A stretch of 64,000 bases of DNA. It comes from Candidatus Multivoradales bacterium. Its GTDB lineage: Bacteria > Acidobacteriota > Thermoanaerobaculia > Multivoradales > JAHEKO01. This document shows positions 44,268-63,970 of the stretch, one piece after another (position 1 is the first letter of the stretch; the number at the start of each line of letters is the position of its first letter). Under the pieces are notes generated by a model. The model ran no database searches. It was not told the DNA's origin and saw nothing but the letters and a program-made list of their open reading frames with translations. Made by a program: the position numbers and the translations under genes. The stretch is taken from assembly GCA_965223855.1 (NCBI GenBank), contig CBDCXM010000009.1, positions 2,752,001 to 2,816,000 on the forward strand, in the 5' to 3' direction.

Positions 44268-45368
44268 TTGGTCGAGCACGAAGAGCTCGTTCAGGACTGG
44301 GCTACGAAACTGGGCGCTTCGCTCGGCTTCGACGTCGCCACGACCAGCTGGTTGCTCGCTGCGGCGCTGTTTCTCGTCATCGTCCTCGGCATGGCGGCAG
44401 TTCGCCATGTGCTGCTGAGCCGCCTGCAGGGTGTCGTCGATCGGAGCAAGAACCTGGTCGACGATCTCGTGCTCGACCTGGTGCGCCGGACCGGCTGGCC
44501 GTTCTTCGTGATCGTCGGCATCTTCGTCGGCTCCGTGGCGCTGCGTCTCTCGCCGCCGGTCGATGCTGTGATTCGCAGGCTCTTCTCGATCGCTCTCTTC
44601 GTCCAGGGTGGCATCTGGGCCAACTACGTCCTGAGCTTCGTCGTCGATGCCTACCTCCAGCGTCGACGTGGAGAAGACGCATCGAAGGTCGCGGTGCTGG
44701 CGCTCTTCAACTTCTTTGCCCGGATCGCCGTCTGGACGTTGGTCGTGCTGCTGGTCCTCGACAACCTCGGTGTCGAGGTGGTCACCCTGATTGCCGGCCT
44801 CGGCGTAGGCGGCATCGCCATCGGCCTGGCGCTTCAGAGCGTGCTGCGTGACACCTTCGCCTCGCTGTCGATCATCCTCGACAAGCCGTTCGAGGTCGGT
44901 GACTTCATCATCGTCGACGACCTTCAGGGGACGGTCGAGCACATCGGGATCAAGACCACCCGCATTCTCAGCCTCGATGGCGAGGAGGTCGTGATCGGCA
45001 ACAACGACCTGCTCTCCTGCCGGATCCGCAACTTCAAGAAGATCGCCGAGCGCCGAGTGCTGCAGCAGCTCCGGCTCGCCTACGACACGTCACCGGACGA
45101 CCTCGATGCGATCCGCCCGATCGTCAAGGAGGTGGTCGACGAGGTGGAAGAGACGCGCTACGAGCGGGCCTACTTCAAGAGCTTCGGCCACGAGGCGGTG
45201 GAGTTCGAGTTCGGCTACTACGTCACCCGGGGAGACTTCGAGCAGATGATGGAGCGCCGCCAGCAGGTGAATCTGGCGCTCCATCGACGGCTGACCGAGG
45301 AGGGATACCGATTCGGGCTGCCATCGCGGCGCGTCTACTCGGATGACGACGGGGCGGGCGAGGGCTGA
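44268..45368 (+). CDS. MscS family mechanosensitive channel
   Basis: AGLGVGGIAIGLALQ, DKPFEVGDFI, GTVEHIGIKTT. Confidence 0.92.
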   Translation: MVEHEELVQDWATKLGASLGFDVATTSWLLAAALFLVIVLGMAAVRHVLLSRLQGVVDRSKNLVDDLVLDLVRRTGWPFFVIVGIFVGSVALRLSPPVDAVIRRLFSIALFVQGGIWANYVLSFVVDAYLQRRRGEDASKVAVLALFNFFARIAVWTLVVLLVLDNLGVEVVTLIAGLGVGGIAIGLALQSVLRDTFASLSIILDKPFEVGDFIIVDDLQGTVEHIGIKTTRILSLDGEEVVIGNNDLLSCRIRNFKKIAERRVLQQLRLAYDTSPDDLDAIRPIVKEVVDEVEETRYERAYFKSFGHEAVEFEFGYYVTRGDFEQMMERRQQVNLALHRRLTEEGYRFGLPSRRVYSDDDGAGEG

Positions 45369-46888
45369 TGCGTCGCGCGGCGGGTCTGGTCGTCCTGGGG
45401 ATGGTCGGCGCCGGCCTCGGCGTCTTCACTCCATCGATCGAGGCGAAGAAGCCGGCTCAGGTGGAGAGTCCCGAGGACCTGTACATCGTCGACTGTCTGC
45501 TGCCCCCGAGGATCCGTCGACTCGGACGGAGATCGGTGACGCAGGCTCCCCGACAGCCGATCAAGACGACGGCACTCGAGTGCCGCATCCGAGGCGGTGT
45601 CTACACCGAGCCCGACCAGGCGAACCTCGGCACGGCGCTCCAGGTCTGGCTCGCCGCCGCTCAGAGCGGTGACGCCGAGGCTCAGTTCTACGTCGGTCAG
45701 ATCTTCGAGAAGGGGCTGGGGGTCGATCCCGACTTCGGCAGTGCCGCGCAGTGGTACCGCAAGGCGGCCGAGCAGGGGTACGCGGCGGCGCAGATCAACC
45801 TCGGCTCGCTCTACGAGACGGGGCGCGGAGTCGAACAGGACGGGGAAGAGGCGCTGCGCTGGTACCGGCGCGCCGCGGGTCTGGCAGAAGACCTCGTCGT
45901 TCTCCAGAGCGAGGAGGTAGAAGACCTCCGCGCCGCGAGGGACCGTCTGGAAGCGGCCGAGCGTGAGGTGGCCGACCTTGAGCAAGAGGTGACGCGACTG
46001 CGGGAGGCCGGAGCCGCCTCCGCGGAGGAGATCCAGCGTCTCGAGGAACGGACCCGCGAACTCGAGCGACAGTCCAGCGAGGCGGAGGATCTCAGGGCGG
46101 AGCTGGAACGGCTCAGCAGCTCCTCGGGAGCTGTTCCGGCCGCAGCGGGATCGATCCCGCTGCCCGGTCCGGGCGCCGTCAACTTCGGGAACTATCATGC
46201 GCTCGTCGTCGGCATCTCGAACTACGCCTCTCTCGACTCGCTTCCCGAGGCCGCGGAGGGGGCGAAGAGGATCGCCGAGACCTTGAGACGCGACTACGGC
46301 TTCGAGGTCGAGGTCCATCTGGACGCCTCGCGCCTCACCATCATGAAGGCGCTCAACCAGTTGCGCGAGCGACTGACCCCCGACGACAATCTCCTCGTCT
46401 ACTACGCCGGCCACGCGACCCGCGACACCAGGGGGACCCGTGCGTTCTGGCAGGCGGCGGACGCGGACGCGTCGAATCCGGTGAACTGGATTCCCACCGA
46501 GCTGGTCACGGAGCACCTCGATCTGGTCCCGGCGCGTCACGTGCTGGTGGTGGCGGACGCTCTCTTTACCGGTCTTCGCACCCGTTCGGCGGTCGCCCAG
46601 TTGCGACAGGGGATGACCGACGAAGAGCGCTACCACTACCTCAGGACCCTGCGGGAGAAGCGCTGCCGGCTCGTCCTGACTTCCGGGAGCGAGGACGGAG
46701 CGGGGGAGTTCACCGGCTCTCTGGCCGGACTGCTGGAGGCGAACGACGGTCTGCTCGAGGCGTCTCAGCTCTACCGCGAACTGGTACGCGGTCGTGACGC
46801 TTCGAACGAGGGGCCGCCGCCGGAGTTCGCGTCGATGCGATGGGCACGCAACGAAGTAGCGGACTTCTTCTTCGTCCGAACCCCGTAG
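45368..46888 (+). CDS. secreted Sel1-repeat / coiled-coil / caspase-like (C14) protein lacking the catalytic Cys
   Basis: Signal peptide; Sel1 repeats (AQWYRKAAEQGYAAAQINLGSLYETGRGV); ALVVGISNY, YYAGHA; VVADALFTG where active enzymes have DSCxSG. Confidence 0.88.
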   Translation: MRRAAGLVVLGMVGAGLGVFTPSIEAKKPAQVESPEDLYIVDCLLPPRIRRLGRRSVTQAPRQPIKTTALECRIRGGVYTEPDQANLGTALQVWLAAAQSGDAEAQFYVGQIFEKGLGVDPDFGSAAQWYRKAAEQGYAAAQINLGSLYETGRGVEQDGEEALRWYRRAAGLAEDLVVLQSEEVEDLRAARDRLEAAEREVADLEQEVTRLREAGAASAEEIQRLEERTRELERQSSEAEDLRAELERLSSSSGAVPAAAGSIPLPGPGAVNFGNYHALVVGISNYASLDSLPEAAEGAKRIAETLRRDYGFEVEVHLDASRLTIMKALNQLRERLTPDDNLLVYYAGHATRDTRGTRAFWQAADADASNPVNWIPTELVTEHLDLVPARHVLVVADALFTGLRTRSAVAQLRQGMTDEERYHYLRTLREKRCRLVLTSGSEDGAGEFTGSLAGLLEANDGLLEASQLYRELVRGRDASNEGPPPEFASMRWARNEVADFFFVRTP

Positions 46889-47219: not shown

Positions 47220-49310
47220 TCAGGCCCCGCTGCGCGCGACGAAGAAGAACTCGCCTCCACTGTGATCCGTCCGTGGAATCGGCGCAAACCGGGGGCGCTG
47301 GGGCATGCCCAGTGCCTGTGAGCCGTCGGCGACCGCATCGACCGTGGTCTGGAAGAGCCCGGAGGCCGCGAGCACGGCGTCGTTCGCTTCGAGCGCCTCG
47401 AGCAGCTCTCGAGCGAAGATCGAGTGGTCGCCGCCGCCCGAATCGAGTACCGGACTCAGGCCGCCCGAGGTCAGCAGCAGGCGGGACTTGTACCCGAGGG
47501 CCTCTTCGATCTCCGACGCAGAGCGCGGTGGGGGAGCGGTCTCCTCGGCGTTCCCGGGGGCGGCGAGTGCGCCGGAGAAGCACGAGTCCGCGACCACCAG
47601 CACTCGCTGCGCCTCCGTCTGGTCGAGCAGGGCACTCAAGGTATGAGTGGTGGAGATCCAGTTCGAGGTGTCGAGCGGATCGGCATCGACCGGCTGCCAG
47701 AAGCCGCTCTGGTTGCGGCCGTCGATGCGGCCGTGGCCGGCATAGAAGACGAGCAGGTTGTCGCGCGGAGTCATGCTGCTGGCCACACTCGAGAGCTGGG
47801 TGACGATCTCCGCACGGGTCGCATCGAGCAGGAGGTGGACTTCGAATCCATAGCGGTTCTCGAGCAGACCCGCCAGTTCACGGGCGTCGCGGGCGGCGCT
47901 CTCGAGCTCCGGCAGGTACTGGTAGCGATCGTTGCCGATCACGACGGCGTGGAAGTCGCCGAAGTCGAGCGCCGCGAGTGCCGAAGCGCTGGGGGCCGCG
48001 CGCGCTCTCAGGAACAGGAACGTGGCCACGGCCAGAAGTGCGACGAGGGCCAACCCGGCGACGAGGGGCGAGCGCCGGCTCCGCCACGGGACGCCGCCTT
48101 CGGTGGCGACGAAGGTGCCGGCCGGCGGTGTGCTAACCGCTGTGCCGGGTTCGGGCCTCGCCTCGGGTGAGAGGGTGGTCGCCTCGTCCCGCCCGGAGAC
48201 CGCCTGTCCTCGAGGCGGTGCGGCCACCGTCGCTCCCGCCGGCGTCGATGCCGAGGGGGACATCGTCGTTGGATCGTGCCCCGGGGGCGACACGGTCGTC
48301 GGGTCGGCTGTCGGCTGCGCCTCGCCCGGGTCGGCCTCCGGCTGCGTCCCGATGTCGCCTCCCGGCCCGGTCGGCACGGTCGAGGGCTGTAGTGGCTCGG
48401 ATTCCAGGATCGTCCGGTCGTGGCTGCCGGACTCCGACGCTCCGGCGGCGGCCGCCGCCAGCTGCGTGGCGAACTCACGCGCATCGGCGTAGCGGTCGTC
48501 CGGGCTCTTGGCGAGAGCGCGGAGCAGCACCGTTCGCAGCGGCTGCGAGACTTTGCCCTGCGGGTCGGTCTCGTCGAAGCTCCTCGGCGGATGGAACAGG
48601 TGTCCGGCGATCAACGACGTCTGGTCGGTGCCGGTGATCGGCAGGATCCCCGTCAGCAGCTCGTAGAGGGCGACGCCCAGCGAGTAGAGGTCGCTACGGC
48701 CGTCGATCGGCGCGTCGCCGCTTGCACCGAGCTGCTCCGGGGAGGAGTACCGGACCTTGCCGATGAACATCGCCGCCCGCGTCTCGAACTGCGCTCCATC
48801 GAGCGGCTTGGCGATCCCCATGTCGATGAGCTTCACCAGCAGCTCGCCCCGATGAGAGCGCGTCAGCATGATGTTGTCGGGCGAGATGTCCCGGTGAACG
48901 ACGTTGCGCTGGTGGAGATAGTCGAGCGCCTCGAGAGTCTGCAATCCGACTTCGAGGATCTGCGCCTGGGACAGCGGTGTCGGCGAGCGCTGCGTCTGGA
49001 CGAGGTCGCGGCCCTCGATGAACTCCATGACGATGCAGGCCATGCCGTCGTCGCCGACGACGAAGTCGTGAATCGCGGCGATGTTCTCGTGGCGTAGACG
49101 GGTCGCCACCTGGGCCTCCCTGAGGAAACGCGCCTGCAACTCCGCGTCGTGCTTGAGTTGAGGGCGGATCGTCTTGAGGACCCGAACCTCCTCCAGGTGG
49201 CGGTGGTGACCCTTGTAGATCTCTCCCATCCCACCTTCGCCGAGAAGGTCGAGGATCTCGTACTTGCGATCGATCTCCTCGATGCCGATGGAGAGAGGAG
49301 CGTCGCTCAT
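47220..49310 (-). CDS. Ser/Thr kinase - Pro/Thr linker - TM - caspase-like (C14) peptidase
   Basis: GEGGMG, HRDISPDN, DMG, YSSPEQ; TM LVAGLALVALLAVATFLFL; FYAGHG and VADSCFSG give an intact His-Cys dyad. Confidence 0.93.
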   Translation of the reverse strand: MSDAPLSIGIEEIDRKYEILDLLGEGGMGEIYKGHHRHLEEVRVLKTIRPQLKHDAELQARFLREAQVATRLRHENIAAIHDFVVGDDGMACIVMEFIEGRDLVQTQRSPTPLSQAQILEVGLQTLEALDYLHQRNVVHRDISPDNIMLTRSHRGELLVKLIDMGIAKPLDGAQFETRAAMFIGKVRYSSPEQLGASGDAPIDGRSDLYSLGVALYELLTGILPITGTDQTSLIAGHLFHPPRSFDETDPQGKVSQPLRTVLLRALAKSPDDRYADAREFATQLAAAAAGASESGSHDRTILESEPLQPSTVPTGPGGDIGTQPEADPGEAQPTADPTTVSPPGHDPTTMSPSASTPAGATVAAPPRGQAVSGRDEATTLSPEARPEPGTAVSTPPAGTFVATEGGVPWRSRRSPLVAGLALVALLAVATFLFLRARAAPSASALAALDFGDFHAVVIGNDRYQYLPELESAARDARELAGLLENRYGFEVHLLLDATRAEIVTQLSSVASSMTPRDNLLVFYAGHGRIDGRNQSGFWQPVDADPLDTSNWISTTHTLSALLDQTEAQRVLVVADSCFSGALAAPGNAEETAPPPRSASEIEEALGYKSRLLLTSGGLSPVLDSGGGDHSIFARELLEALEANDAVLAASGLFQTTVDAVADGSQALGMPQRPRFAPIPRTDHSGGEFFFVARSGA

Positions 49311-50904: not shown

Positions 50905-53037
50905 TCAGTCGGACGAACCGGGCTTGGGCTTGTTCCGGCTCCCCAACGGTGGGCGCTTGGAGGAGGCTCCGCCCGGCTTGAGGCTCGCCTTCTTGCGAAG
51001 CTTGGCGAAGGGATCCTCCGCCTTCTCCTTCTGGCCGGCGCCGGCTCCGGGCCGGGCCGCTCCGGGTCGGGCCGCTCCGGGTCGCTCGGCACCGGGCCGG
51101 GCAGCGCCGGGCCTCGCGGTGCCGGCCGCGGCAGCTCCAGGCCGGGCAGGGGTGGCGGCGCCACCGCTCTTCATCGCTTCGAGCTTCTTCAGCGCTTCAG
51201 CCGCCTCTTTGGGCATCCCCGGCTTGGCGGCTCCGGCGGCCGCTGCGGGCGGGATTCCGGCAGGCATGCCGGGGGCCGCCGGCGCGGCGCCGGCATCGGG
51301 AGTCATGATCGAGGTGAAGAAGACGATCAACTGCTGGCTCAGCGTTTCGAGGTCGGCGGCGGACGCCGAAGACTTCTTGACACCCTCCGTGACCTTCCGC
51401 TGGGAGGCGTCGAGCGTCTTCAGCTGCTTCTGCAGGATCTCCTTGTCGGCAGCCGCCTCCCGTGCCACCTGATCGGTGATCGACTTGACGGTCGTTTCGA
51501 CGAGGTCGAGGGCGTTGTTCTGCTGCTCGGAGAGGTGCCGGGAGATCGCCTGATCCCACCCCTTCTGTACCTCACCGAGAGAGCGCTTCAGATCGTTGCG
51601 CATGCCCTCGCGCGCCTTGTCGAGCTCCTTGGCTACGGTCTCTGCGCTCTGCTTTCTCGCTCCGTTGTACACGTTGACGAGACCGAAGGAGAGGAGCACG
51701 ACCCCCATCGGAATCGTGAACTCGCGGTAGGAGCGGATGAACGACAGACCGAAGGCGGAGAAGACCATGAAGAAGACCATCTGGTAGCGACGCGCGGCCA
51801 TGAAGTAATCCATCGGTCCGCGGCGCGTGATCTCACTCTGGTAGGGACGGTTGAATCCGACCGAGCGATCGACCAGGTTGGTGAGGTGACGCTCCGACAT
51901 GTGATCGAAGTGGAGCGTGACGGGCGGAGCTCCCTTCGACTCGATCAGATTCTCGAGATGGGTTTCGACCTCGCGGAACAACTCGCGCATCCGCAGCAGG
52001 TCTTCGCGGCCGACGTCGGTGAGCGATCGCGACGCTTCGTCCAGCAGGCCGTCCTGGATCTGCTTCGGGATCGTCAGGACGAAGATCTTCGGCTTCTTCT
52101 CGTAGTCGAAGTCCTCGAAAGCGTCGATCCGCGCGTCGAGCTTGTTCGTGAGAATCCCGTCGTGGGTCGCCACCAGCTCGCCCATGCGCGCGGCCGAGGT
52201 CTTGGTGAAGGTGTCGAACTTCTTCTGCAGATAGGAGCGGACGTCGCCCAGCACCTCCGTCGGGTTCCCTCCCGATCCGGATCCCTTGGCGGCCATCTGC
52301 TGTTCGAGCGAGGCTCGCTTCGAGCGCATTCCACGACCCTCGTTCTCGAGGGCCGCGGCGAACGCGCCGTGCATCGAGGCGAGGGCGCGAGATGCCGACC
52401 ACAGCCCCGCCATCCGACCCGCCTGCTGCAGCGGCGGCCTGCCGAAGCTCTCCTCCAGATTCTTGGTGTGGAGGGTCTCGATCTCGACGATCTTGCAGAC
52501 CCAGTCGTCGCGACTTCCCAGACCGGCGATCGCCTGCGCCCAGTCGCTCTCCTTCGGAGCGACCATCAGCGTGAGCGGCCGGTTCTTGACCTCGGCGATC
52601 AGGGCTTCCATCCACTCCTGGCCGGGCGATTCCTTGGAGCCCCGCGCCACGACGAGCACCGGAGCGACTCTTTCGCCGGCCTGGCGGCCGCGTCCCTGCA
52701 TCCTGCTGCGGAGCCTGACGACGGAGCAGTTGCGCTGAAGGTCGACAGGGCGCCGCTCCTCTTCCTTCTCGCCGGTCGCGAGGTCGACGATCGATTCCGC
52801 CTCCAGCCCCAGCCATTGGGCGAGGGTCCCCGTCCATTGAGGATGGAGATCGCCGAGCAGCAGCACCTCCACCTCGACGGTGCCGGACTCGACGAGCGCC
52901 AGCAGCTCGTCCGCGTTCTCACGCAGTTTGACGAGCGCCGGCGCCCTGCCGGCGGCGTCTACGGTCTCCGAGAATCCGCGAACCTGGTCGCGGACCGTTT
53001 CCGCGGCGTTTTCGGGGCTGACTCGAGCCAGGGCCAT
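50905..53037 (-). CDS. coiled-coil membrane protein, possibly a catalytically dead dynamin-like protein
   Basis: Alpha/beta N-region (VLLLGDLHPQWTGTLAQWLG), long helices, hydrophobic hairpin (MVFFMVFSAFGLSF...IPMGVVLLSFGLV), basic PGAAR-repeat tail. Confidence 0.75.
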   Translation of the reverse strand: MALARVSPENAAETVRDQVRGFSETVDAAGRAPALVKLRENADELLALVESGTVEVEVLLLGDLHPQWTGTLAQWLGLEAESIVDLATGEKEEERRPVDLQRNCSVVRLRSRMQGRGRQAGERVAPVLVVARGSKESPGQEWMEALIAEVKNRPLTLMVAPKESDWAQAIAGLGSRDDWVCKIVEIETLHTKNLEESFGRPPLQQAGRMAGLWSASRALASMHGAFAAALENEGRGMRSKRASLEQQMAAKGSGSGGNPTEVLGDVRSYLQKKFDTFTKTSAARMGELVATHDGILTNKLDARIDAFEDFDYEKKPKIFVLTIPKQIQDGLLDEASRSLTDVGREDLLRMRELFREVETHLENLIESKGAPPVTLHFDHMSERHLTNLVDRSVGFNRPYQSEITRRGPMDYFMAARRYQMVFFMVFSAFGLSFIRSYREFTIPMGVVLLSFGLVNVYNGARKQSAETVAKELDKAREGMRNDLKRSLGEVQKGWDQAISRHLSEQQNNALDLVETTVKSITDQVAREAAADKEILQKQLKTLDASQRKVTEGVKKSSASAADLETLSQQLIVFFTSIMTPDAGAAPAAPGMPAGIPPAAAAGAAKPGMPKEAAEALKKLEAMKSGGAATPARPGAAAAGTARPGAARPGAERPGAARPGAARPGAGAGQKEKAEDPFAKLRKKASLKPGGASSKRPPLGSRNKPKPGSSD

Positions 53038-53064: not shown

Positions 53065-53409
53065 TTAGTCGAACGCCTCGATCGCCTCTTTCTGGGTGTC
53101 GAAGGAGGGAATGATCTTGTGGATCAGCGCCATCTGGAGAACCTTGCCCACGTTCTCCTCGAAGTTGGCCAGGTGGACCTGCGCTCCCTTCTCCTTCGCG
53201 GCGACGTTGACCGCGACGAGCTCTCCTACGCCCGCCGAGTCCATCTTGGTGACCTTGCCCATGTCGACCACGAATTTGTCCTCTCCCTCCTTCAGCTCCT
53301 TGACGACGAGCTTCATGAGGTCGAAGTGATCCTGCCCAAGCACCATCTCGCCCTTGAGGCTGACGATGAGGACATCCTTCTGCTGACGTGTCTTGATCTC
53401 GAATGCCAT
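53065..53409 (-). CDS. STAS-domain anti-sigma-factor antagonist
   Basis: IVSLKGEM, VVDMGKVTKMDSAGVGELV (conserved phospho-Ser motif); own RBS GGAGAG. Confidence 0.9.
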   Translation of the reverse strand: MAFEIKTRQQKDVLIVSLKGEMVLGQDHFDLMKLVVKELKEGEDKFVVDMGKVTKMDSAGVGELVAVNVAAKEKGAQVHLANFEENVGKVLQMALIHKIIPSFDTQKEAIEAFD

Positions 53410-53559
53410 CGGACTCTCCCTCTCCGGCGTTTCCGCCGCGGTTCCTGCAGTCTCCTCTTTCGGCTGAGCGCCGAGTCTAGAGGACTTGGTCGTTGCCGAC
53501 AATGAATTGTTACCTCCGGCCCGATTACCCTTCGGCACACTGCCAGAGCCCTTCTTGTC

Positions 53560-53982
53560 TACGGAGCTATGGCTGCTGCGGTGGCGCTCGAAAGGATCGC
53601 CGGTCTCGGCGAGACGCCTCCTGTAGGGCGTCAGACGGCGGTCGATCGTCCTCACACTGAGGTCCAGAAGTTGGCGGGCGATCTTCGGTCGCACCTCGAC
53701 CCTGGTCCTCGCCCAGGTCACCAGCTCGGGCAACCGCTTCTTCAGTTTCGCGGCGGACGGGTAGCGGGCATGCCGCCACAGGGAGACCAGAAGCCGGGTG
53801 CCCTCGTTGTCGCTCTTCCGGGGCCGGCCGCGACGCCTCGGGAGCCTCGGTCGCGGGGGTTTTCGAAGCAGCCGGGTCGCGTACTTACGGTGAAACCCGG
53901 TCACCGCGCAAAATTCGTCCAGCAGCCGTGACTTCTCCGGACGCGTCGCTTTTCGATAGCGCGGCGCGATCGCCTTGACCAT
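53560..53982 (-). mobile_element. transposase N-terminal HTH remnant without catalytic domain, in frame with the STAS gene
   Basis: RYRKATRPEKSRLLDEFCAVTGFHRKYATRLL...LSVRTIDRRL resembles N-termini of integrase-core (ISNCY/IS481-like) transposases; no DDE domain or terminal inverted repeats seen. Confidence 0.6.
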
Positions 53983-54045
53983 CTCGAGTTGCCAGTGTTC
54001 CCTCAAAGGTCGGCCTGTCTGTTTCGGGCTCGGTAACAAACTATA

Positions 54046-54280: not shown

Positions 54281-57200
54281 ATGATTGAACTCAGCGACGA
54301 ACAAAAACTACTTGCGCAGTCTCTGCTGCAGAAGAAGGCCGCCATGGAGGCGTACCGGGCAGCGGAGCTGCCGGCTTCCGCGATGCTCGAGGTCGGGCTG
54401 TCGATGGAGCAGGTGCGCGAGGCGGGCTACGAGCCGAACGAGCTCAAGGAAGAGCAGTTCGCGGCCGAGAAGCTGCATGGACTCTGGCCGGCGGCCGAAT
54501 TCCTGGACAGCGACTGGGAGCTGGCCGAACTGAAGGACGGCGGCTACGGCGTCATGGAGTTCAGGACGGGCGGCTGGGAGCCGAGCGTCCTGCTCGACGA
54601 CGGCGCATATACCGCCGAGGACTTCCACGGTGGTGGTGAAGCCGGCGAGGCCGAAGGCGAGGGCGAAGAAGGGGGCGACTCGGAGTCGATCTGGCCTGCG
54701 GAAGAGCTGAAGGCCGCCGAGATCGGTGCCGAGATTCTGCGGGAAGGTGGCTACACGGCGACCGAGCTGCGGGAAGGCGGCTACTTCGCCGGCGAGCTGC
54801 GCGAGGCCGAGTACACGGCCGCGGAGCTGCTCGAGGCCGAGTTCACCGCTGAAGAGATGAAGGACGGCGAGTGGGACGCTGCCGAGCTCAAGGACGGCGG
54901 CTGGGACGCCGAGGTGCTCTACGGCGTCTACAGCAACGAGGAGCTGCGCGAGGCGGGCTACGAGGCGGCGGCGATGAAGAGCGCCGGCGCCACCGCCAAC
55001 GAGATGCGCCAGGCCGGCTATAGCGGCGAGGACCTGCAGGAGGAGTACTCGCTGCCCGAGAAGCGCGAGGGCGGCTACGGCGCCGGCGAGCTGAGCGATC
55101 AGTACTCCGCCAAGGAGATGACCAAGGCGCAGTTCGGCGTCGAAGAGCTCTACCCGCACTACGACGTCGAGGACCTCAAGGAAGCGGGCGTCACGGCGAA
55201 GGAGTTGCTCGAGGAGGTCGAGGAGTGCTCGGTTTCGGACATCGCCGAGTTCTTCAGTGCGACCGAGCTCAAGGAGGCGGGGGCGACCGCCACAGAGCTC
55301 GAACAGGAGAACTTCAGTGCTGCCGATCTCAAGGAGGCGGGGTACCCGCTCTCCGAGCTGAAGGAGTGCTTCGACCTTCCCGACCTCAAGGAGGAGTTCA
55401 CTCTCCCCGAGCTCAAGGAGGAGTACGAACTCTCGGAGCTCAAGGAGGAGTTCGAGGTCTCGGAGCTCAAGGAGGAGTTCGAGCTCGGCGAGATGAAGGA
55501 GGAGTTCGGAGTCGCCGATCTCAAGGAGGCCTACTCGCTCGAGGAGCTCAAGCCCGAGTACGAGCTTTCGGAGCTCAAGGACGCCTACGACCTGGGCGAG
55601 CTGAAGGCTGAGTTCGAGCTTTCGGAGCTCAAGGAGGAGTTCGACCTCGGCGAGCTCAAGGAGGAGTTCTCGCTCGAGAAGCTGAAGGCTGAGTTCGACC
55701 TTCCGGAGCTCAAGGAGGAGTTCGATCTCGGAGAGCTCAAGCGAGAGTTCTCGCTCGAGGAGTTGAAGGAGGAGTTCGACCTCGGCGAGCTCAAGGAGGA
55801 GTTCTCCCTCGAAGAGCTGAAGGCTGAGTTCGAGCTTTCGGAGCTCAAGGAGGAGTTCGACCTCGGCGACCTCAAGCAGGAGTTCTCGCTCGAGGAGCTC
55901 AAGGCTGAGTTCGAGCTTTCGGAGCTCAAGGAAGAGTTCTCGCTCGAGGAGCTGAAGGCGGAGTTCGAGCTGCCGGAATTGAAGGAGGAGTTCGACCTCG
56001 GTGAGCTCAAGGAGGAGTTCTCGCTCGAGGAGCTCAAGGAGGAGTTCGAGCTTGCCGAGCTGAAGGAGGAGTTCTCCCTCGAGAAGCTGAAGGCTGAGTT
56101 CGAGCTCGAGGAGCTCAAAGAGGAGTTCGAGCTTTCCGACCTCAAGGAGGAGTTCTCGCTCGAGGAGCTGAAGGAGGAGTTCGATCTTCCGGATCTCAAG
56201 GAGGAGTTCACTCTCGAAGAGCTGAAGGCGGAGTTCGAGCTGACGGAACTCATGGAGGAGTTCGAACTCTCCGAGCTCAAGCGCGAGTTCTCGCTCGAGG
56301 AGCTCAAGGAAGAGTTCGAGCTTGCCGAGCTGAAGGAGGAGTTCTCGCTCGAGAAGCTGAAGGCGGAGTTCGAGCTCGAGGAGCTGAAGGAGGAGTTCGA
56401 CCTCGGTGAGTTGAAGGAGGAGTTCTCGCTCGAGGAGCTCAAGGAGGAGTTCGAGCTCTCGGAGCTGAAGGAAGAGTTCTCCCTGGAAGATCTCAAGGAG
56501 GAGTTCGAACTCGCCGAGTTGAAGGAGGAGTTCGAGCTTTCGGAGCTGAAGGAGGAGTTCGACCTCGGCGAGTTGAAGGAAGAGTTCGAGCTTCCCGAGC
56601 TCAAGGAGGAGTTCGATCTCGGCGAGCTCAAGGAGGAGTTCGAACTCGCCGAGCTGAAGGAGGAGTTCGAACTCGCGGAGCTCAAGGAAGAGTTCGAACT
56701 CGGTGAGCTGAAGGAGGAGTTCGAGCTTCCCGAGCTCAAGGAGGAGTTCGAACTCGGTGAGCTCAAGGAGGAGTTCGAGCTTTCCGAGCTGAAGGTAGAG
56801 TTCGAGCTTTCGGAGCTGAAGGAAGAGTTCGACCTCGGCGAACTGAAAGAGGAGTTCGAGCTTTCTGAGCTCAAGGAAGAGTTCGAGCTCGGTGAGCTGA
56901 AGGAAGAGTTCGAGCTCGACGAACTGAAGGAAGAGTTCGAGCTTTCGGAGCTCAAGGAGGAGTTCGAACTCGGCGAGCTGAAGGAGGAGTTCGAACTCGA
57001 CGAGCTGAAGGAGGAGTTCGAGCTTTCCGAGCTGAAGGAGGAGTTCGAGCTTTCGGAGCTCAAGGAAGAGTTCGAGCTCGAGGAGTTGAAGGAAGAGTTC
57101 GAGCTCGGCGAGCTGAAGGAGGAGTTCGAGCTCGAGGAGCTCAAGGAAGAGTTCGAGCTTTCGGAGCTCAAGGAGGAGTTCGAACTTTCGGAGCTCAAGG

Positions 57201-60200
57201 AGGAGTTCGAGCTCGAGGAGTTGAAGGAAGAGTTCGAACTCGGTGAGCTCAAGGAGGAGTTCGAGCTCGAGGAACTCAAGGAGGAGTTCGAGCTTTCCGA
57301 GTTGAAGGAAGAGTTCGAGCTTTCGGAGCTCAAGGAAGAGTTCGAACTCGAGGAGTTGAAGGAAGAGTTCGAGCTCGGTGAGCTCAAGGAGGAGTTCGAG
57401 CTCGACGAGCTGAAAGAGGAGTTCGAGCTTTCGGAGCTCAAGGAAGAGTTCGAGCTCGGCGAGCTGAAGGAAGAGTTCGAACTCGACGAGTTGAAGGAGG
57501 AGTTCGAGCTCGGCGAGCTGAAGGAAGAGTTCGAGCTCTCGGAGCTCAAGGAGGAGTTCGACCTCGGCGAGCTGAAAGAGGAGTTCGAGCTTTCGGAGCT
57601 GAAGGAGGAATTCGAGCTCTCCGAGCTGAAGGAGGAATTCGAGCTTTCGGAGCTCAAGGAGGAGTTCGAGCTCTCGGAGCTCAAGGAGGAGTTCGAGATC
57701 CCCGAGCTGAAGGAGGAGTTCGAGCTCTCCGAGATGAAGGAGGAGTTCGAGCTCGAAGAGCTCAAGGATCACTACGAGCTCGAGGAGCTGGCCGAGGAGT
57801 ACACCTGCGCCGAGCTCAAGGACGTCGACTTCACGGCGCAGGAGCTCTACGGGGTCGACTTCACCATGGGCGACCTCAGGGAGGCGGGCTTCACCGCCGG
57901 CGAGCTCAAGGAGGAGGGCTTCGAAGCGGGGCAGCTCCTCGAGGGTGAGTACGAGGCGCAGGATTGTCACGACGCCGGGTACGACGCCGCCGAGATGCTC
58001 GCCGGTGAGTGGCTCACCGAGGTACTGCACGGTGTCTACTCCGCTGCCGAGATGCTCGAGGGCGACTGGCCGACGGATCTGATGCACGGCATCTACACCG
58101 CGGCCGAGATGCTGGAGGCGAACTGGCCGACCGAGCTGATGCACGGCATCTTCGAGGCCGCCGAGCTTCTAGAAGCCAACTGGCCGACGGAGCTGGTGCA
58201 CGGCATCTACCAGGCCGCCGAGCTTCTGGAGGCGAACTGGCCGACGGAGCTGGTGCACGGGATCTTCGATGCCGCCGAGCTCCTGGAGGCGAACTGGCCG
58301 ACGGACCTGCTGCACGGGATCTTCCCGGCCGCCGAGCTTCTCGACGCGAACTGGCCGACGGAGCTGATGCACGGCATCTACCAGGCCGCCGAGCTTCTGG
58401 AGGCGAACTGGCCGACGGAGCTGCTGCACGGGATCTTCCCGGCCGCCGAGCTTCTGGAGGCGAACTGGCCGACGGAACTGGTGCACGGGATCTTCGAGGC
58501 CGCCGAGCTTCTGGAGGCGAACTGGCCGACCGAGCTGGTGCACGGGATCTTCCCGGCCGCCGAGCTTCTGGAGGCGAGCTGGCCGACGGACCTGATGCAC
58601 GGGATCTTCGACGCCGCCGAGATGTTGGAGGCGAACTGGCCGACCGATCTGATGCACGGGATCTTCCCGGCCGCCGAGCTTCTGGAAGCGAGCTGGCCTA
58701 CGGATCTGATGCACGGGATCTTCGACGCCGCCGAGATGCTGGAGGCGAACTGGCCGACCGATCTGATGCACGGGATCTTCCCCGCGACGGAGCTGTTGGA
58801 CGCCAACTGGCCGACGGAGCTGATGCACGGGATCTTCGACGCTGCCGAGATGCTGGAGGCGAACTGGCCGACCGATCTGATGCACGGGATCTTCCCGGCT
58901 GCCGAGCTTCTGGAGGCGAACTGGCCGACGGATCTGATGCACGGGATCTTCAACGCCGCCGAGATGCTGGAGGCGAACTGGCCGACCGATCTGATGCACG
59001 GGATCTTCCCGGCCGCCGAGCTTCTGGAGGCCAACTGGCCCACGGAGCTGGTGCACGGCATCTTCGATGCGACCGAGCTACTGGAGGCCAACTGGCCGAC
59101 CAACCTGTTGCACGGGATCTTCCCGGCCAAGGAGCTGCTCGACGCGGCCTGGCCGACGGAGCTGGTACACGGCATCTACGAGGCTGCCGAGCTTCTGGAG
59201 GCCGACTGGCCGACCGAGCTGGTGCACGGCATCTTCGATGCCGCCGAGCTTCACGCCGGCGGCTGGCTGGCCGAGCGCCTGCACGGCATCTTCGGCGCCG
59301 ACGAGGTCAAGGACGCCTACCAGCCCGACGAGGTCGAAGGTGTCTACGCGATGGAGGAGTTCTTCGGGGACGAGGTCTCCGAGGCGATCTCGAGCGTCGG
59401 TGACTTCACGTCGATGATCACGAGCGGCATCGACCGCCTCAACGAGATGCTCGCCGCCGCGCAGTCGGTGAAGGGCGACATCGTTGCGGCGACCGACGAG
59501 GTCAAGTCGCAGTTCGACGTTCTCGACCAGTCGATCAACGAGGCCGAGCAGCAGATCGCTCAGCAGGCCGAGGAGATCGCCGCCAAGTTCGAGGAGTTCG
59601 AGGCCAAGCTCACCGCCTTCGACGGCGGGGTGTCGGAAGGCACCGAGGGGCTGGAGAACGAGCTCAACGACGTCGAGGTGATGTCCAACGAGATGCTCTC
59701 GACGATGCAGACCCAGTACGAGGCCTGCAAGAGCGACCTCGAAGCGCTCGCCGATCAGGTGACGGAGTACCAGAGCACCACGACGAGCGAGGTTCAGGCG
59801 CGTCAGGAGCAGATCGAAGCGTTCCAGCAGGAGATCGAGTCGGTCGAAAGCGACTTCCGCGACAAGAAGGACGAGCTCGTCGACCACTACAACGGGATGC
59901 AGGACGGTCTGGTCAACAGCCTGTCGAACGTCCAGAGCGAGTTCGGCGGCCTGGTGTCTCAGACCTCCTCGAGCCTCACGGCTCTGACCGGAATGCTCGA
60001 CGACACGAGCTCGGAGAAGCTGGGCAACATGGCGACTCTGATGCTCGAGACGCTGGTGGGCGCCCTCGGCGATTCCGCCGGCGCCCTCGGCGACGCGCTC
60101 TCGTTCCTCGAGGGTGTCGGTGCGGCGGGCCAGGAGCTGATGGACGGCGCCGCCGGCGACGTCATCGGCCAGATGGAAGGCGTCGTCGACGTCATCGACC

Positions 60201-60244
60201 AGATCAAACCCGTACTCGACATGGTCGAGTCGATGCTCGGCTGA
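54281..60244 (+). CDS. giant acidic repeat protein (1987 aa) with C-terminal helical domain
   Basis: RBS GGAG; 10-aa (YTAAELREAG-like), 9-aa (FELSELKEE) and 19-aa (AAELLEANWPTELVHGIFP) repeat blocks; C-terminal ~290-aa amphipathic helical region; no signal peptide. Confidence 0.92.
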   Translation: MIELSDEQKLLAQSLLQKKAAMEAYRAAELPASAMLEVGLSMEQVREAGYEPNELKEEQFAAEKLHGLWPAAEFLDSDWELAELKDGGYGVMEFRTGGWEPSVLLDDGAYTAEDFHGGGEAGEAEGEGEEGGDSESIWPAEELKAAEIGAEILREGGYTATELREGGYFAGELREAEYTAAELLEAEFTAEEMKDGEWDAAELKDGGWDAEVLYGVYSNEELREAGYEAAAMKSAGATANEMRQAGYSGEDLQEEYSLPEKREGGYGAGELSDQYSAKEMTKAQFGVEELYPHYDVEDLKEAGVTAKELLEEVEECSVSDIAEFFSATELKEAGATATELEQENFSAADLKEAGYPLSELKECFDLPDLKEEFTLPELKEEYELSELKEEFEVSELKEEFELGEMKEEFGVADLKEAYSLEELKPEYELSELKDAYDLGELKAEFELSELKEEFDLGELKEEFSLEKLKAEFDLPELKEEFDLGELKREFSLEELKEEFDLGELKEEFSLEELKAEFELSELKEEFDLGDLKQEFSLEELKAEFELSELKEEFSLEELKAEFELPELKEEFDLGELKEEFSLEELKEEFELAELKEEFSLEKLKAEFELEELKEEFELSDLKEEFSLEELKEEFDLPDLKEEFTLEELKAEFELTELMEEFELSELKREFSLEELKEEFELAELKEEFSLEKLKAEFELEELKEEFDLGELKEEFSLEELKEEFELSELKEEFSLEDLKEEFELAELKEEFELSELKEEFDLGELKEEFELPELKEEFDLGELKEEFELAELKEEFELAELKEEFELGELKEEFELPELKEEFELGELKEEFELSELKVEFELSELKEEFDLGELKEEFELSELKEEFELGELKEEFELDELKEEFELSELKEEFELGELKEEFELDELKEEFELSELKEEFELSELKEEFELEELKEEFELGELKEEFELEELKEEFELSELKEEFELSELKEEFELEELKEEFELGELKEEFELEELKEEFELSELKEEFELSELKEEFELEELKEEFELGELKEEFELDELKEEFELSELKEEFELGELKEEFELDELKEEFELGELKEEFELSELKEEFDLGELKEEFELSELKEEFELSELKEEFELSELKEEFELSELKEEFEIPELKEEFELSEMKEEFELEELKDHYELEELAEEYTCAELKDVDFTAQELYGVDFTMGDLREAGFTAGELKEEGFEAGQLLEGEYEAQDCHDAGYDAAEMLAGEWLTEVLHGVYSAAEMLEGDWPTDLMHGIYTAAEMLEANWPTELMHGIFEAAELLEANWPTELVHGIYQAAELLEANWPTELVHGIFDAAELLEANWPTDLLHGIFPAAELLDANWPTELMHGIYQAAELLEANWPTELLHGIFPAAELLEANWPTELVHGIFEAAELLEANWPTELVHGIFPAAELLEASWPTDLMHGIFDAAEMLEANWPTDLMHGIFPAAELLEASWPTDLMHGIFDAAEMLEANWPTDLMHGIFPATELLDANWPTELMHGIFDAAEMLEANWPTDLMHGIFPAAELLEANWPTDLMHGIFNAAEMLEANWPTDLMHGIFPAAELLEANWPTELVHGIFDATELLEANWPTNLLHGIFPAKELLDAAWPTELVHGIYEAAELLEADWPTELVHGIFDAAELHAGGWLAERLHGIFGADEVKDAYQPDEVEGVYAMEEFFGDEVSEAISSVGDFTSMITSGIDRLNEMLAAAQSVKGDIVAATDEVKSQFDVLDQSINEAEQQIAQQAEEIAAKFEEFEAKLTAFDGGVSEGTEGLENELNDVEVMSNEMLSTMQTQYEACKSDLEALADQVTEYQSTTTSEVQARQEQIEAFQQEIESVESDFRDKKDELVDHYNGMQDGLVNSLSNVQSEFGGLVSQTSSSLTALTGMLDDTSSEKLGNMATLMLETLVGALGDSAGALGDALSFLEGVGAAGQELMDGAAGDVIGQMEGVVDVIDQIKPVLDMVESMLG
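55343..57799 (+). repeat. coding 27-bp tandem repeat, about 90 copies
   Basis: Unit ttcgagctttcggagctcaaggaggag with frequent synonymous variation. Confidence 0.95.
57987..59297 (+). repeat. coding 57-bp tandem repeat, 23 copies
   Basis: Unit gccgccgagcttctggaggcgaactggccgacggagctggtgcacgggatcttcccg; copies counted from the translation. Confidence 0.95.
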
Positions 60245-60277
60245 TCGCCACTTCATCGGGACTAAGGAGAAAGAACA

Positions 60278-61279
60278 ATGTCAGAAGTACTGGATTTCGG
60301 AACGAGTTTCGACGAAGCGGCGCAGACGGTCAGCAACCTGATCTCGGACATGGCCGACCATGCCGCCACGGTGGCCGACCACAACTCGGTGATCGAAGCG
60401 GCCGAGAGTTCACTGCAGCAGGCGAAGGATCAGGCCTCTCAGATGCTCCAGGGCCTCGCCGGCGACGTCGGCAGCCAGAGCGAGGAGACCAACTCCCTGA
60501 GAGACGAGTTCGCCGGCACTGCCGATGAGCTCAAGGCGGCGGGCGACGCCGGCATGGAGGCCGTCGACGGCTTCAAGGAGGCGGTCGCCGACACCCACGA
60601 CGAGCTGTCCGACGCGGTCACCGAGACGGTGGACGAGGCGAACCAGCTCTACGAAGAGGTGCAGAGCGCAGTCTCGGACGCTGTGTCGATGACCGGCGAA
60701 ACCGCCAACCAGATGCAGGGCACGGCCGATCTGACGATGCAGACGCTCGGCGAAGTCGAGTCCTCGGTCACCGAGCTGACCGGTCGCATGGCCGACCTCG
60801 GGCAGGACACGGTCAGCAAGGCTCTCGACCTCGGCAGCAAGATCACCGACGACGTGCAGTCGCGCTTCGACGGCATGTTCGGAGATGTCACCGGCGCCCT
60901 GACGTCGGACTTCTTCGACCAGGCGGTCGCCGGCTTCGACGGCCTGTCGAGCAACCTTACCAACCTCTACGACAACTTCGAGGACGTGGTCAACGGTCTC
61001 GGCGACAACCTGATGGGACGGATGGAAGAGGTGTTCATGAACACCATCGAGCACGCCCAGGATCAGGCGGCGTCGAAGCTGGAGGAGGAGTTCAAGGAAC
61101 TCGTCAGCGACGCCGTCGAGTTTCTCGTCGCCGAGGTGGCCGAGAACCTCACCATGGCCACCGTCGGCTCGGCGACCACCGCGGCCCTCGGTCCGGCGGT
61201 GCCCGTCATCGTCGCGGCGAAGGCCGTCGTCACTCCCATCAAGACCGCCCTCGAGCTGCTCCGCAGCATGGGCCTCTGA
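60278..61279 (+). CDS. acidic alpha-helical protein with hydrophobic C-terminus
   Basis: RBS AAGGAG; 333 aa, Asp/Glu/Ala-rich with heptad-like periodicity; ends AALGPAVPVIVAAKAVVTPIKTALELLRSMGL. Confidence 0.88.
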   Translation: MSEVLDFGTSFDEAAQTVSNLISDMADHAATVADHNSVIEAAESSLQQAKDQASQMLQGLAGDVGSQSEETNSLRDEFAGTADELKAAGDAGMEAVDGFKEAVADTHDELSDAVTETVDEANQLYEEVQSAVSDAVSMTGETANQMQGTADLTMQTLGEVESSVTELTGRMADLGQDTVSKALDLGSKITDDVQSRFDGMFGDVTGALTSDFFDQAVAGFDGLSSNLTNLYDNFEDVVNGLGDNLMGRMEEVFMNTIEHAQDQAASKLEEEFKELVSDAVEFLVAEVAENLTMATVGSATTAALGPAVPVIVAAKAVVTPIKTALELLRSMGL

Positions 61280-61303
61280 TCCGATCGCGAAAGGAACTAG
61301 ATC

Positions 61304-62230
61304 ATGCGCGATGTCATTGCACAGATTTTCGAAGCAGCCCCCAGCGCGAGTCCGCTGCTGGAGCAGGTAAACCAGGAATCAGAAGCCCTGATGGGGATCG
61401 TCGGCGAGCTGCAGGAGAACATCGGCAGTAAGCAGACGGCCCTGGCGGACGTCGCTTCCCGTCGCAACGAGAAGATGAGCGAGCTCCAGACCAAGGCGTC
61501 GGAGCAGCAGTCCCGTCTCGAGAGCGAGGTCGCGGACGTCGACGCCAAGGTCGGTGAGCTCAAGCGGGGTCTCGACGAGATCAAGGAGGGTGTCACCAGC
61601 GCCCTCGAAGCCGCCCAGCAGCAGATGGACGGCTTCCGCGGGCAGGTCGACGCCGGCCGCGAGCTCGTGTCGGGCGCCAACGAGGCGGCGCAGGCCGCCA
61701 TCTCCACGGTCCACGACCAGATCCAGGCGGGGCGCGAGTCGCTCCATCGGGCAACCGATTACGCCAACGAACAGATCGACGGCTTCCAGTCGAAGATCGA
61801 CGAGACGATGGAGTTCACCGAGAACATGGCGACCAACCTGATGGACCGCATGGAAGAAGGCATGCGGGACACGGGCGCCAAGGTCGAAGAGATGACCGGC
61901 ATGTCGTTCGAGGAGATGCACTCCGTCTTCACGAGCGGCATGGAGATGGTCCAGGGCAACGTCATCGAGAACGGCGTCAACATGGTGCTCGACGACCTCC
62001 AGGGCCGGATCGAGCAGCAGGCGAACCAGCTGATCGACCAGTTGGTCGACGAGCTCGTCGGTGCGCTCGGCAACGTTCGCGAGAGCGTTTTCGGCAACGC
62101 CGAGGACGCCGGCCTCGAGCGCAAGGCGACCGAGGCGGTTCTCGACGCACTCGAAACGGTGCTGGACCCGATGTTCAGCGCCATCGATCACATCAAGGGC
62201 ATGGCCTCGATGGTCGGTATCGACATCTGA
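61304..62230 (+). CDS. acidic alpha-helical / coiled-coil protein
   Basis: RBS AAGGA; 308 aa; same composition as its neighbours. Confidence 0.88.
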   Translation: MRDVIAQIFEAAPSASPLLEQVNQESEALMGIVGELQENIGSKQTALADVASRRNEKMSELQTKASEQQSRLESEVADVDAKVGELKRGLDEIKEGVTSALEAAQQQMDGFRGQVDAGRELVSGANEAAQAAISTVHDQIQAGRESLHRATDYANEQIDGFQSKIDETMEFTENMATNLMDRMEEGMRDTGAKVEEMTGMSFEEMHSVFTSGMEMVQGNVIENGVNMVLDDLQGRIEQQANQLIDQLVDELVGALGNVRESVFGNAEDAGLERKATEAVLDALETVLDPMFSAIDHIKGMASMVGIDI

Positions 62231-62271
62231 GCCCTGACAGACAGAGACCAACGAGGACACGGAGATAGAAC

Positions 62272-63174
62272 ATGAGCATTCTTGATGTCGTACAGCAGGC
62301 CATCAGCCAGGTCGAGAGCGATCTGGCCCAGCAGGCCGAGAATCTGGTCGGTGAGCTGCAGGACACCGGCAGCCAGGTGGAAGCCGCGGGCGGCGAAGTC
62401 GACTCACAGTGGCAGGACCTGGAGACCAAGGCTGAGTCGATGTTCGGCGCCGCCGACGATGCGATGAGTCAGATCGAGCAGGCGGGCGACGCGATGTCGA
62501 CGCGCGCCAGCGAGATCCGCTCGAACGTCGACTCGGCGATGGAGCAGGGCTCGAGTCTCTTCGAGTCGTGCCGCGGCGTCGTGGAGACGATGGACCAGGG
62601 GGTGCAGGAACTGATCCCCGACTGCGACAGCGTCATGGCGATGGTCGACGAGACCGTCAACACGCTGGCCAGTGAGATCGAGAGCCTCGACCAGGCGCTC
62701 GAGTCCACACGCGTGATCACCGACAACCACCTGCACGCCCCCTTCCAGGGACTGGTGGACGAGGTGAAGACCGAGATCTTCAACCGCGCCAGCGAGCTCG
62801 GTGGGTACGTCGACAGCGACTTCCTCACCACCGCGGCCGACGAGATCAGCCAGTTCAAGAGCCACGTCGACGAGGTGGTCACCAACGCCACCGACAAGCT
62901 CGAGGAGGTGCGCAGCACCGCCGAGAGCGAAGGTTCCAACGCGATGGAGCAGATGGGTTCGATGTTCGGCGAGCAGTTCGGCTCGCTCATCGGCACCGTC
63001 GAGACGATCGCCAACTTCATGACGCAGGTCGGCGGCATGATGGAGACGGCCGGTACGATGATCGGCACGACCACCTCGGTGATGAGTGCCGGAGCCGGTA
63101 CCACCGCGATCGGCGCCAAGGCTGCGATCGGGATCATCGAGGACATCGTCGAGATCTTCGAGAGCGTCACCTGA
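62272..63174 (+). CDS. acidic alpha-helical protein with Gly/Ala/Thr-rich hydrophobic C-terminus
   Basis: RBS GGAG; 300 aa; ends AGTMIGTTTSVMSAGAGTTAIGAKAAIGIIEDIVEIFESVT. Confidence 0.88.
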   Translation: MSILDVVQQAISQVESDLAQQAENLVGELQDTGSQVEAAGGEVDSQWQDLETKAESMFGAADDAMSQIEQAGDAMSTRASEIRSNVDSAMEQGSSLFESCRGVVETMDQGVQELIPDCDSVMAMVDETVNTLASEIESLDQALESTRVITDNHLHAPFQGLVDEVKTEIFNRASELGGYVDSDFLTTAADEISQFKSHVDEVVTNATDKLEEVRSTAESEGSNAMEQMGSMFGEQFGSLIGTVETIANFMTQVGGMMETAGTMIGTTTSVMSAGAGTTAIGAKAAIGIIEDIVEIFESVT

Positions 63175-63312
63175 TCCGGTCGGTCCTTCCCATGAGGTGA
63201 GTCTCCGGGCGCGAGCTTCAGGTCGGTCCAGCCGACCGGGGGTTCGCGCCCGGCTTTGTCTCGACCACGACCGCGCGAGCGACCGAGAAGAGGAAGCGAG
63301 GAGAGGGGGAGC

Positions 63313-63970
63313 ATGAGCATTCTGGACGAGGTCGGAAAGGCGATCAGCCACGTCGAGGGCGACCTCGCCGAGCAGGCGATGGCGGCGAAGGACGAAAGGG
63401 TCGACGCGGTCCTGAAGATGACCAACGCGATCTTCGAGATCGACACGCAGTGGGAGGAGGTAAAGACGACGGGCGAGTCGATGTTCGGCGCCGCGGACCG
63501 TGCGATGGGCTGGATCGAGCAGGTGGGAGGCAAACTGTCCAGCCATGCGAACGAGGTCCGTTCGGGCATCGACGGCGCCATGGAGCAGGGCTCGAGCCTC
63601 TTCGAGTCGTGCCGCGGCGTCGTCGAGGCGCTCGACCACGGTGTGCAGGAGCTGATCCCCGATTGCGAAGGGGTGATGGGCAAGGTCGGCGAGATCGACT
63701 ACCTGAGCGATCGACTCGAGAAGACGCGCGCCTACACCGACAACCACCTTCACACGCCCTTCCAGGGAGTGGTGGACGACCAACGACTTCCTCACCACCG
63801 CGGCCGAGGAGAGCCAGTTCAAGAGCCACGTCGAGAACGTCGGCGCCGGTAACGAGAACCGGTCGCCTGACGAACGCGCCCGAATCGGTCTGTTCGGGGC
63901 GAAGGCCGCTATCGGCATCATCGAAGACATCGTCGAGATCTTCGAAAGTGCGTCTGATCGGCGCCGGTAA
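63313..63970 (+). pseudogene. deleted/frameshifted paralog of 62272..63174
   Basis: Shares MSILD, ESMFGAAD, AMEQGSSLFESCRGVVE, VQELIPDC, TDNHLH.PFQG; frame shifts near 63781 (DFLTTAA, SQFKSHV) and ends GAKAAIGIIEDIVEIFES. Confidence 0.75.

Follow-up and report, generated by a model that had tools for sequence, protein, structure and literature searches.

The 64,000-nucleotide (nt) stretch analysed here, called the window throughout, comes from a Candidatus Multivoradales bacterium (GCA_965223855.1, contig CBDCXM010000009.1, positions 2,752,001 to 2,816,000) and carries, on its + strand, a series of open reading frames (ORFs) for acidic proteins. The first encodes an acidic repeat protein of 1987 amino acids (aa), whose tail is termed here subunit A; those that follow encode proteins of 333, 308, and 300 aa, termed subunits B, C, and D. 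The spacers between these ORFs measure 24–41 nt, and each has a purine-rich stretch resembling a ribosome-binding site. The features of the series are as follows:

54281 to 60244, + strand: giant ORF, 1987 aa, the last ~297 aa being subunit A
54281 to 59350, + strand: candidate cargo part of the giant protein (aa 1–1690), a very acidic repeat array
59351 to 60244, + strand: subunit A, 297 aa when counted from an in-frame ATG and continuous, in the same reading frame, with the repeat array
60278 to 61279, + strand: subunit B, 333 aa
61304 to 62230, + strand: subunit C, 308 aa
62272 to 63174, + strand: subunit D, 300 aa, modelled as a single hairpin (helices 3–150 and 157–299)
63236 to 63253, + strand: terminator-like GC hairpin 3' of D, a consensus match only (11 such matches found in the region versus 7.3 expected)
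63313 to 63970 (end approximate), + strand: pseudogene of D, a decayed, frameshifted duplicate recognised by its sequence scores to D

A–D look soluble, at ~33 kDa each, and combine 18–20% aspartate plus glutamate with 4–8% lysine plus arginine; proline accounts for 0.3–1.0% of their residues versus 1.7–7.2% in five neighbouring proteins. A preliminary description of this DNA had reported such acidic, nearly proline-free proteins of similar length, and this holds; the four C-termini that it quoted are all present, and the ORFs lie where it placed them. Its count of four to five tandem ~300-aa units comes down to four, however: the unit at 63313 has a protein score of 445 to D and of at most 74 to A, B, or C, and contains deletions and a frameshift, and by these scores it is a decayed duplicate of D and no independent subunit. 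The terminal helices, said to be amphipathic, are clearly so in A, B, and D, where they rank in the 80th–98th percentile among the 14-mers of the same protein; the helix of C, at the 21st percentile, is not. Two hydrophobic hairpins rich in Gly, Ala, and Thr had also been proposed. The one in B stands, since its near-terminal segment, a conserved stretch of Gly/Ala/Thr/Pro lying 23–31 aa from the C-terminus, is hydrophobic in 10/10 members (KD19 1.46–1.99); the one in D is weak (KD19 1.33 in the window copy, 0.59–1.68 across 36 members), and the same survey found no consistently hydrophobic near-terminal segment in A or C. B also has a conserved VxEFG-like motif at its N-terminus. No signal peptide was found on A–D or on the cyanobacterial toxins described below.

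The ATG at 59351 is preceded by GAAGGT. Translation from this possible internal start would yield a free A of 297 aa exactly, within the range typical of cyanobacterial A proteins encoded on their own (296–299 aa); A may thus exist in a fused and a free form.

Searches of Pfam, NCBIfam, PADLOC, and PHROGs gave no family for A–D, the matches being to generic coiled coils and essentially all below cut-off. Baculo_PEP_C, matched by A at 41 bits (cut-off 38), was treated as a coiled-coil artefact. Sequence searches of the PDB with the four profiles returned designed bundles, spike mimics, apolipoproteins, or nothing. Homologue searches gave five close homologues of B and, among 50%-identity representatives, 47 matches for D, of which 36 near-full-length ones (274–305 aa) were aligned; the other 11 were eight fragments, the window's duplicate of D, one partial fusion, and one non-specific match of 2368 aa. 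For a close homologue of B (P0001) and one of D (P0057), the longest contig listed is 9627 nt in both cases, which hints at an intact operon in relatives of the window organism. In the ESM Atlas, the four hypothetical families are cyanobacteria-rich clusters of 50–77 members (a lead only), and an Atlas search with a B homologue returned nothing at ≥0.9.

D is the one subunit of the four that was folded. AlphaFold2, given the 36-homologue alignment, predicts one hairpin of two ~145-residue helices (predicted local distance difference test, pLDDT, 68; predicted template-modelling score, pTM, 0.31), which at 1.5 Å per residue would be ~22 nm long in this low-confidence model. Sequence periodicity is 3.56 in the N-halves of A–D and 3.58–3.76, with weak peaks, in the C-halves. 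A Foldseek comparison of the D model with the PDB gave no matches, and the best 50 matches listed by VIA are all to generic coiled coils, with Z up to 9.7; among the full-length ones, a chemoreceptor hairpin scores highest (Z 8.2, root-mean-square deviation, rmsd, 8.5). Complex predictions with pieces of A–D of ~250 aa and D as partner scored 0.00 twice; the controls remained unfolded and the fold of the partner was uncertain, and the result is evidence for neither side.

These data bear on the idea that A–D are a four-component alpha-pore-forming toxin or translocon, which would oligomerise on a target membrane, insert the Gly/Ala/Thr-rich tails of B and D, and pass cargo through the pore. 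The tripartite Hbl/Nhe/Mak systems are laid out as operons of paralogous helical proteins. A–D, at 300–330 aa, share with them and with ClyA-type toxins (~300–350 aa) an operon of helical subunits, here probably paralogous, one of which has a hydrophobic segment, conserved here in every B member, and they weakly match the profiles Bacillus_HBL, NheA, and MakA/E (E 2e-5 to 8e-3). These matches, however, rank under SMC/Rad50 coiled coils and lie far below the curated cut-offs (HBL 19.4 of 29.1 bits, NheA 16.5 of 500, MakA 15.2 of 320, MakE 23.7 of 360). Moreover, the operon has four subunits where those systems have two or three, the hydrophobic segment lies near the C-terminus instead of forming a central tongue, A and C are without one, and the D model, at low confidence, has two helices and no four- to five-helix bundle. 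The structural comparison that had been suggested, made with D, showed no ClyA-family chain among the best 50 VIA matches or the Foldseek results. Membership of the ClyA/Hbl/Nhe group, one of the folds first proposed, is not borne out, and a pore is an unlikely explanation of the operon.

Another claim was that A–D are divergent paralogues, to be checked by pairwise HHalign. In all six pairs, HHalign scores are better than those of reversed controls: E is 7e-7 to 5e-15 over 175–292 columns, nearly end to end, versus 2e-5 to 2e-9 over 79–189 columns for the controls. Single-sequence scores also beat the reversed controls in 6/6 pairs, narrowly, but hidden Markov model (HMM) cross-scores between subunits (6–31 bits) overlap the reversed ones (4–28 bits). 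A common ancestry of A–D is probable, and short of proven because the reversed controls also score well in HHalign and overlap in the HMM scores.

Related loci occur in cyanobacteria. Scanning GTDB genomes with five aligned D homologues, members of a branch that proved cyanobacterial, produced 74 pattern matches and from these six loci (L001–L006, 11–21 kb each) in five assemblies, a biased sample and no census. L001 and L003 belong to the same metagenome-assembled genome, L003, L005, and L006 are close relatives from one lineage, and one of the loci lies in the named isolate Aliterella atlantica CENA595. The L006 contig is labelled Tatlockia sp.; it is read as cyanobacterial, and probably mis-binned, because its dynamin-like partner protein (see below) is 77–92% identical to those of Aliterella. 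HMMs built from the cyanobacterial proteins alone score the matching window protein at 91–129 bits (A 128.6, B 119.6, C 113.7, D 91.1) and the others at 6–31, and in FastTree trees each subunit forms its own clade that includes the window copy, with support of 99–100 (and long-branch warnings). B, C, and D are adjacent and in the same order in 6/6 loci. The full order A-B-C-D is that of the window in L001 (299, 332, 307, and 299 aa), while in L002, L003, L005, and L006 A lies on an opposite-strand cassette; the sequence of L004 ends after D.

By this comparison, A–D are four distinct orthologous families conserved in order and length. The pattern goes beyond chance because four separate families keep their order in cyanobacteria. 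The orthologues are 20–27% identical to the window proteins, with lengths conserved within ~12 residues and 0–4 internal gaps relative to L001, in organisms whose GC content is ~67% (window) versus ~41% (cyanobacteria); such retention of four subunits fits a heteromeric structure of fixed dimensions. No description of the four-gene module was found in the literature, supplements and most subscription papers lying outside the scope of the search; A–D make up a real, conserved, and apparently undescribed module.

In three of the six loci (L003, L005, and L006), the opposite-strand cassette reads A, A', toxin 1, zero to two small genes, D', and toxin 2. An HMM reveals a ~25-residue N-terminal helix common to the six toxin ORFs; four of these, compared in pairs, agree at 14–23 of their 25 N-terminal residues and show no relationship over the final 100. 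In each of the three loci, toxin 2 scores above the Pfam cut-off as Ntox44 (E 1.6e-13 to 5.8e-13). Toxin 1 differs: in L006 it has a weak GIY-YIG match and is followed by leucine-rich repeat (LRR) and DUF5076 genes; in L003 it has weak Ntox5 and glycine-zipper matches; in L005 it has no Pfam match. A segment of toxin 1 in L005 and L006 is presumably PT-TG-like, and in L005 (residues 50–102) it matches plasmid SpvB/TcaC, HNH nuclease, and SH3 proteins (10 records). The LRR and DUF5076 genes of L006 and an unknown 230-aa gene after a toxin ORF of L003 are immunity-gene candidates, for two of the six toxin ORFs; for Ntox44, the table of PMC3482391 lists no immunity gene. A constant N-terminus with variable toxin C-termini, as in polymorphic toxins, is present in three loci and absent from the window. 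In L002, two other ORFs occupy the toxin slot and end in a similar short helix, with an HMM score that is not significant. Beyond the A genes, the cassette is flanked in L002, L003, L005, and L006 by DUF1822, which we take to be HetZ/PatU3-like, and by a sigma-70-like gene of ~560 aa, possible regulators; in L002 the sigma position holds a short ORF only, and in L002 and L005 a caspase gene follows these genes.

A–D probably form a cargo-carrying rod, because their order is kept in cyanobacteria, where they stand beside interchangeable toxin genes; the full reading, that of a heteromeric helical carrier for swappable cargo, is given a probability of about 0.45. From the data we infer the hairpin fold of A–C, assembly into a heteromer, the binding and export of cargo, the parts played by a dynamin-like protein and a kinase, and the identity of a 710-aa protein (see below). 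In the proposed mechanism, the four non-interchangeable subunits, each an antiparallel hairpin of ~150 + 150 residues and ~22 nm, would together build a heteromeric rod whose length is fixed. Its core would consist of B and C, each in single copy, and A and D would be the cargo-coupled subunits, since A and D are duplicated beside each cyanobacterial toxin cassette and A is fused to cargo in the window. Fusion, or docking by a short helix such as the N-terminal ~25 aa of the toxins, would attach cargo that has no signal peptide, and the rod would export this cargo or deliver it to an adjacent cell; the hydrophobic tail of B may touch a membrane. The platform would be a dynamin-like protein, GTPase-dead and anchored in the membrane, with FHA in some loci, and the switch a Ser/Thr kinase.

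In the window, the place of a toxin would be taken by a 1690-aa acidic repeat fibre, and the repeat array fused to A is the sole cargo candidate there. Aspartate and glutamate make up 32% of the array, which consists of three repeat types of 10, 9, and 19 aa: Pfam Decapeptide repeats at both ends, ~89 repeats of 9 aa, and ~22 of 19 aa. No toxin domain or signal peptide was detected in aa 1–1690 of the giant protein. At its ends, the array is similar to the Legionella DotG/IcmE repeats, with NCBIfam scores below cut-off.

A further element of the cyanobacterial loci is a protein of 605–768 aa, which adjoins B or D in 5/6 loci (as a fragment in L003), always singly. A kinase gene lies upstream of it in three loci, and an FHA domain is inserted into it in L001. 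The L006 model has a confident alpha/beta domain (aa ~50–215) that matches TRAFAC GTPases, together with a helical stalk and a membrane hairpin, as in the bacterial dynamin-like proteins LeoABC, IniA, and SynDLP with their mitofusin fold. Among its structural matches, mitofusin-2 comes out best (Z 12.9, rmsd 10.9, 291 residues aligned); IniA, LeoA, SynDLP, and EHD4 are also within the top 50, the longest matches being those to mitofusin-2, SynDLP, and LeoA. In contrast to these dynamins, an intact P-loop (GxxxxGKS/T) occurs in 0/5 proteins compared. On the model, the cyanobacterial partner is a protein of GTPase-type fold that has lost its P-loop.

The adjacency of a dynamin-like protein in five loci would also suit a membrane-remodelling or lipid-binding polymer, akin to PspA/ESCRT-III or to apolipoproteins, which would act with that protein in envelope repair or the formation of vesicles, the toxins being vesicle passengers or mere neighbours. 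LeoABC act in vesicle secretion (PMC4159319). The Pfam Apolipoprotein profile matches 28/37 D members at E up to 1e-3, and ApoA-IV is a top match among PDB sequences; yet these generic coiled-coil matches reach at most ~40 bits (cut-off 90), a level that designed bundles attain as well. Apolipoproteins and apolipophorins have 11/22-mer repeats punctuated by proline; in A–D prolines are nearly absent, and the N-half periodicity stands at 3.56. Nor was a PspA_IM30 profile or an ESCRT-III fold among the best 25 or 50 matches listed. Apolipoprotein-like membership, another early proposal, thus fails, and the polymer, which leaves the duplication of A and D beside toxins and the fusion of A to cargo unexplained, is very improbable.

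Upstream of the giant gene, the window carries a divergent operon with the following genes:

53065 to 53409, − strand: STAS anti-anti-sigma protein, encoded at the head of this operon
50905 to 53037, − strand: protein of 710 aa that has coiled coils and, at aa ~420–454, two short hydrophobic segments, and that lacks a P-loop
49348 to 50871, − strand: divergent short Hsp70, 507 aa (library profile matches)
47220 to 49310, − strand: Ser/Thr kinase fused to a caspase domain (library profile matches)

The 710-aa protein would, from its similar architecture, be the counterpart of the cyanobacterial pseudo-GTPase, although the sequence homology is not significant. The Hsp70 has intact ATPase motifs and has apparently lost its C-terminal lid; no Hsp70 was found in the six cyanobacterial loci. 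A Sel1, coiled-coil, and caspase-like protein with a signal peptide (45368–46888) is convergent on the kinase–caspase gene, and between the STAS and giant genes (~53500–54000, − strand) there is a remnant of a short basic ORF, without a Pfam match at E up to 1, which we take to resemble the N-terminus of a transposase or integrase. The sole plasmid match, L007 (Acaryochloris plasmid pMB01, 16912–22941), has a kinase, an FHA gene, a fragmented partner, and a LysM repeat protein among insertion sequence elements, and no convincing A–D (one weak match, E 0.0014). Plasmid tblastn searches gave no match for A, B, two D members, the 710-aa protein, or (at 1e-60) the Hsp70, and a phage tblastn search gave none for B.

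A further explanation is an intracellular defence scaffold: invaders would be sensed by a kinase/FHA/pseudo-dynamin/Hsp70/caspase module, and effectors would be kept inactive by the A–D rod until, once released, they kill the producing cell. Kinase, caspase, Hsp70, and TRAFAC-GTPase folds recur in such conflict systems of multicellular bacteria (PMC7159879). Kinases and caspases also flank the cyanobacterial loci, caspase genes being found in the window, L002, and L005; signal peptides are absent and immunity genes missing. PADLOC lists LeoA/LeoBC dynamins as defence genes, and the 710-aa protein and the cyanobacterial partners match LeoB/LeoBC weakly (E 3e-5 to 0.09). On the other hand, an effector segment is common to SpvB/TcaC and HNH toxins, L006 has immunity-like genes, the PADLOC matches of A–D themselves are scattered coiled coils, and Ntox44 is listed with T2SS/T6SS/T7SS (type II, VI, and VII secretion) export in PMC3482391. 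A defence scaffold is as improbable as the pore.

Among known systems, the carrier reading is closest to type VIIb secretion, which has one cargo-linked helical unit with tandem helical partners, variable toxins, and no signal peptide: EsaD with EsxB/C/D forms a long shaft carrying a toxin (PMC10350083), and LXG toxins form complexes with Lap1/Lap2 (PMC9600955). FHA and kinase-type components, among them the pseudokinase EssB, are likewise associated with T7SS. Nevertheless, the proposed WXG100/LXG membership, taken as a hairpin of ~100 aa (LXG ~200 aa) with WxG/LxG at the turn, fails on motif, length, and profile. WxG occurs in 0/9 A, 0/10 B, 0/7 C, and 0/36 D, all ~300 aa long, and a central LxG in 1/9, 3/10, 0/7, and 8/36, respectively; Pfam WXG100 matches 3/37 D members (best E 9e-5); and the last 45 aa of the 62 sequences contain one FxxxD (in C) and one YxxxD/E (in D). 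No FtsK-type EccC/EssC ATPase was found among the scanned window ORFs or the six loci. A–D also differ from type VIIb in their diderm hosts (cyanobacteria), the adjacent dynamin-like pseudo-GTPase, and the separate, small cyanobacterial toxins with a ~25-aa helix. What remains of that proposal is the best functional analogy, because the related loci carry polymorphic toxins; that A–D work like type VII LXG/Esx export rods without belonging to that family has slightly less than an even chance. Polymorphic toxin systems (PMC3482391) share with the cyanobacterial loci the constant N-terminus, variable C-terminal toxins, Ntox44, and some immunity genes; unlike them, A–D match none of the leader domains in the passages of Table 1 that were compared, the word dynamin is absent from the text searched, and the window cargo is a repeat fibre. 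The Esr/Esx pathway has kinase and FHA in common but is MoxR-vWA based and confined to Actinomycetes (PMC13622651).

Several observations weigh against the carrier. The window itself has no toxin, and the HMM of the toxin N-helix matches no window protein, the N-terminus of the giant protein included. The loci that supply the toxin link (L003/L005/L006) belong to a single cyanobacterial lineage, no toxin was found at L001, and L004 is cut off; the GIY-YIG, Ntox5, and glycine-zipper labels are below cut-off (E 0.003–0.03), and no candidate immunity gene follows four of the six toxin ORFs. Neither an export ATPase nor an outer-membrane channel was found in the scanned window ORFs or the six loci. 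The D model has a pTM of 0.31, ordinary GTPases tie in Z with the dynamin-like matches of the partner, whose stalk has a pLDDT under 50, and the 710-aa protein aligns with the cyanobacterial partner at an hhalign probability of 0.2, one of four shuffle tests being passed. A bolder version is doubtful, namely an undescribed diderm delivery system in which four envelope-spanning 22-nm hairpins would form a heteromeric needle or shuttle behind a kinase/FHA-controlled, GTPase-dead dynamin gate, and which would export polymorphic toxins in cyanobacteria or, in the window genome, a giant acidic surface fibre, without Sec and without an FtsK ATPase.

The module is possibly a conflict or toxin-delivery system, and possibly a new type of delivery. 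If the carrier reading is true, it would reveal an unrecognised route for the delivery of toxins and large proteins, tie a bacterial dynamin fold to that route, and give a function to four hypothetical families.

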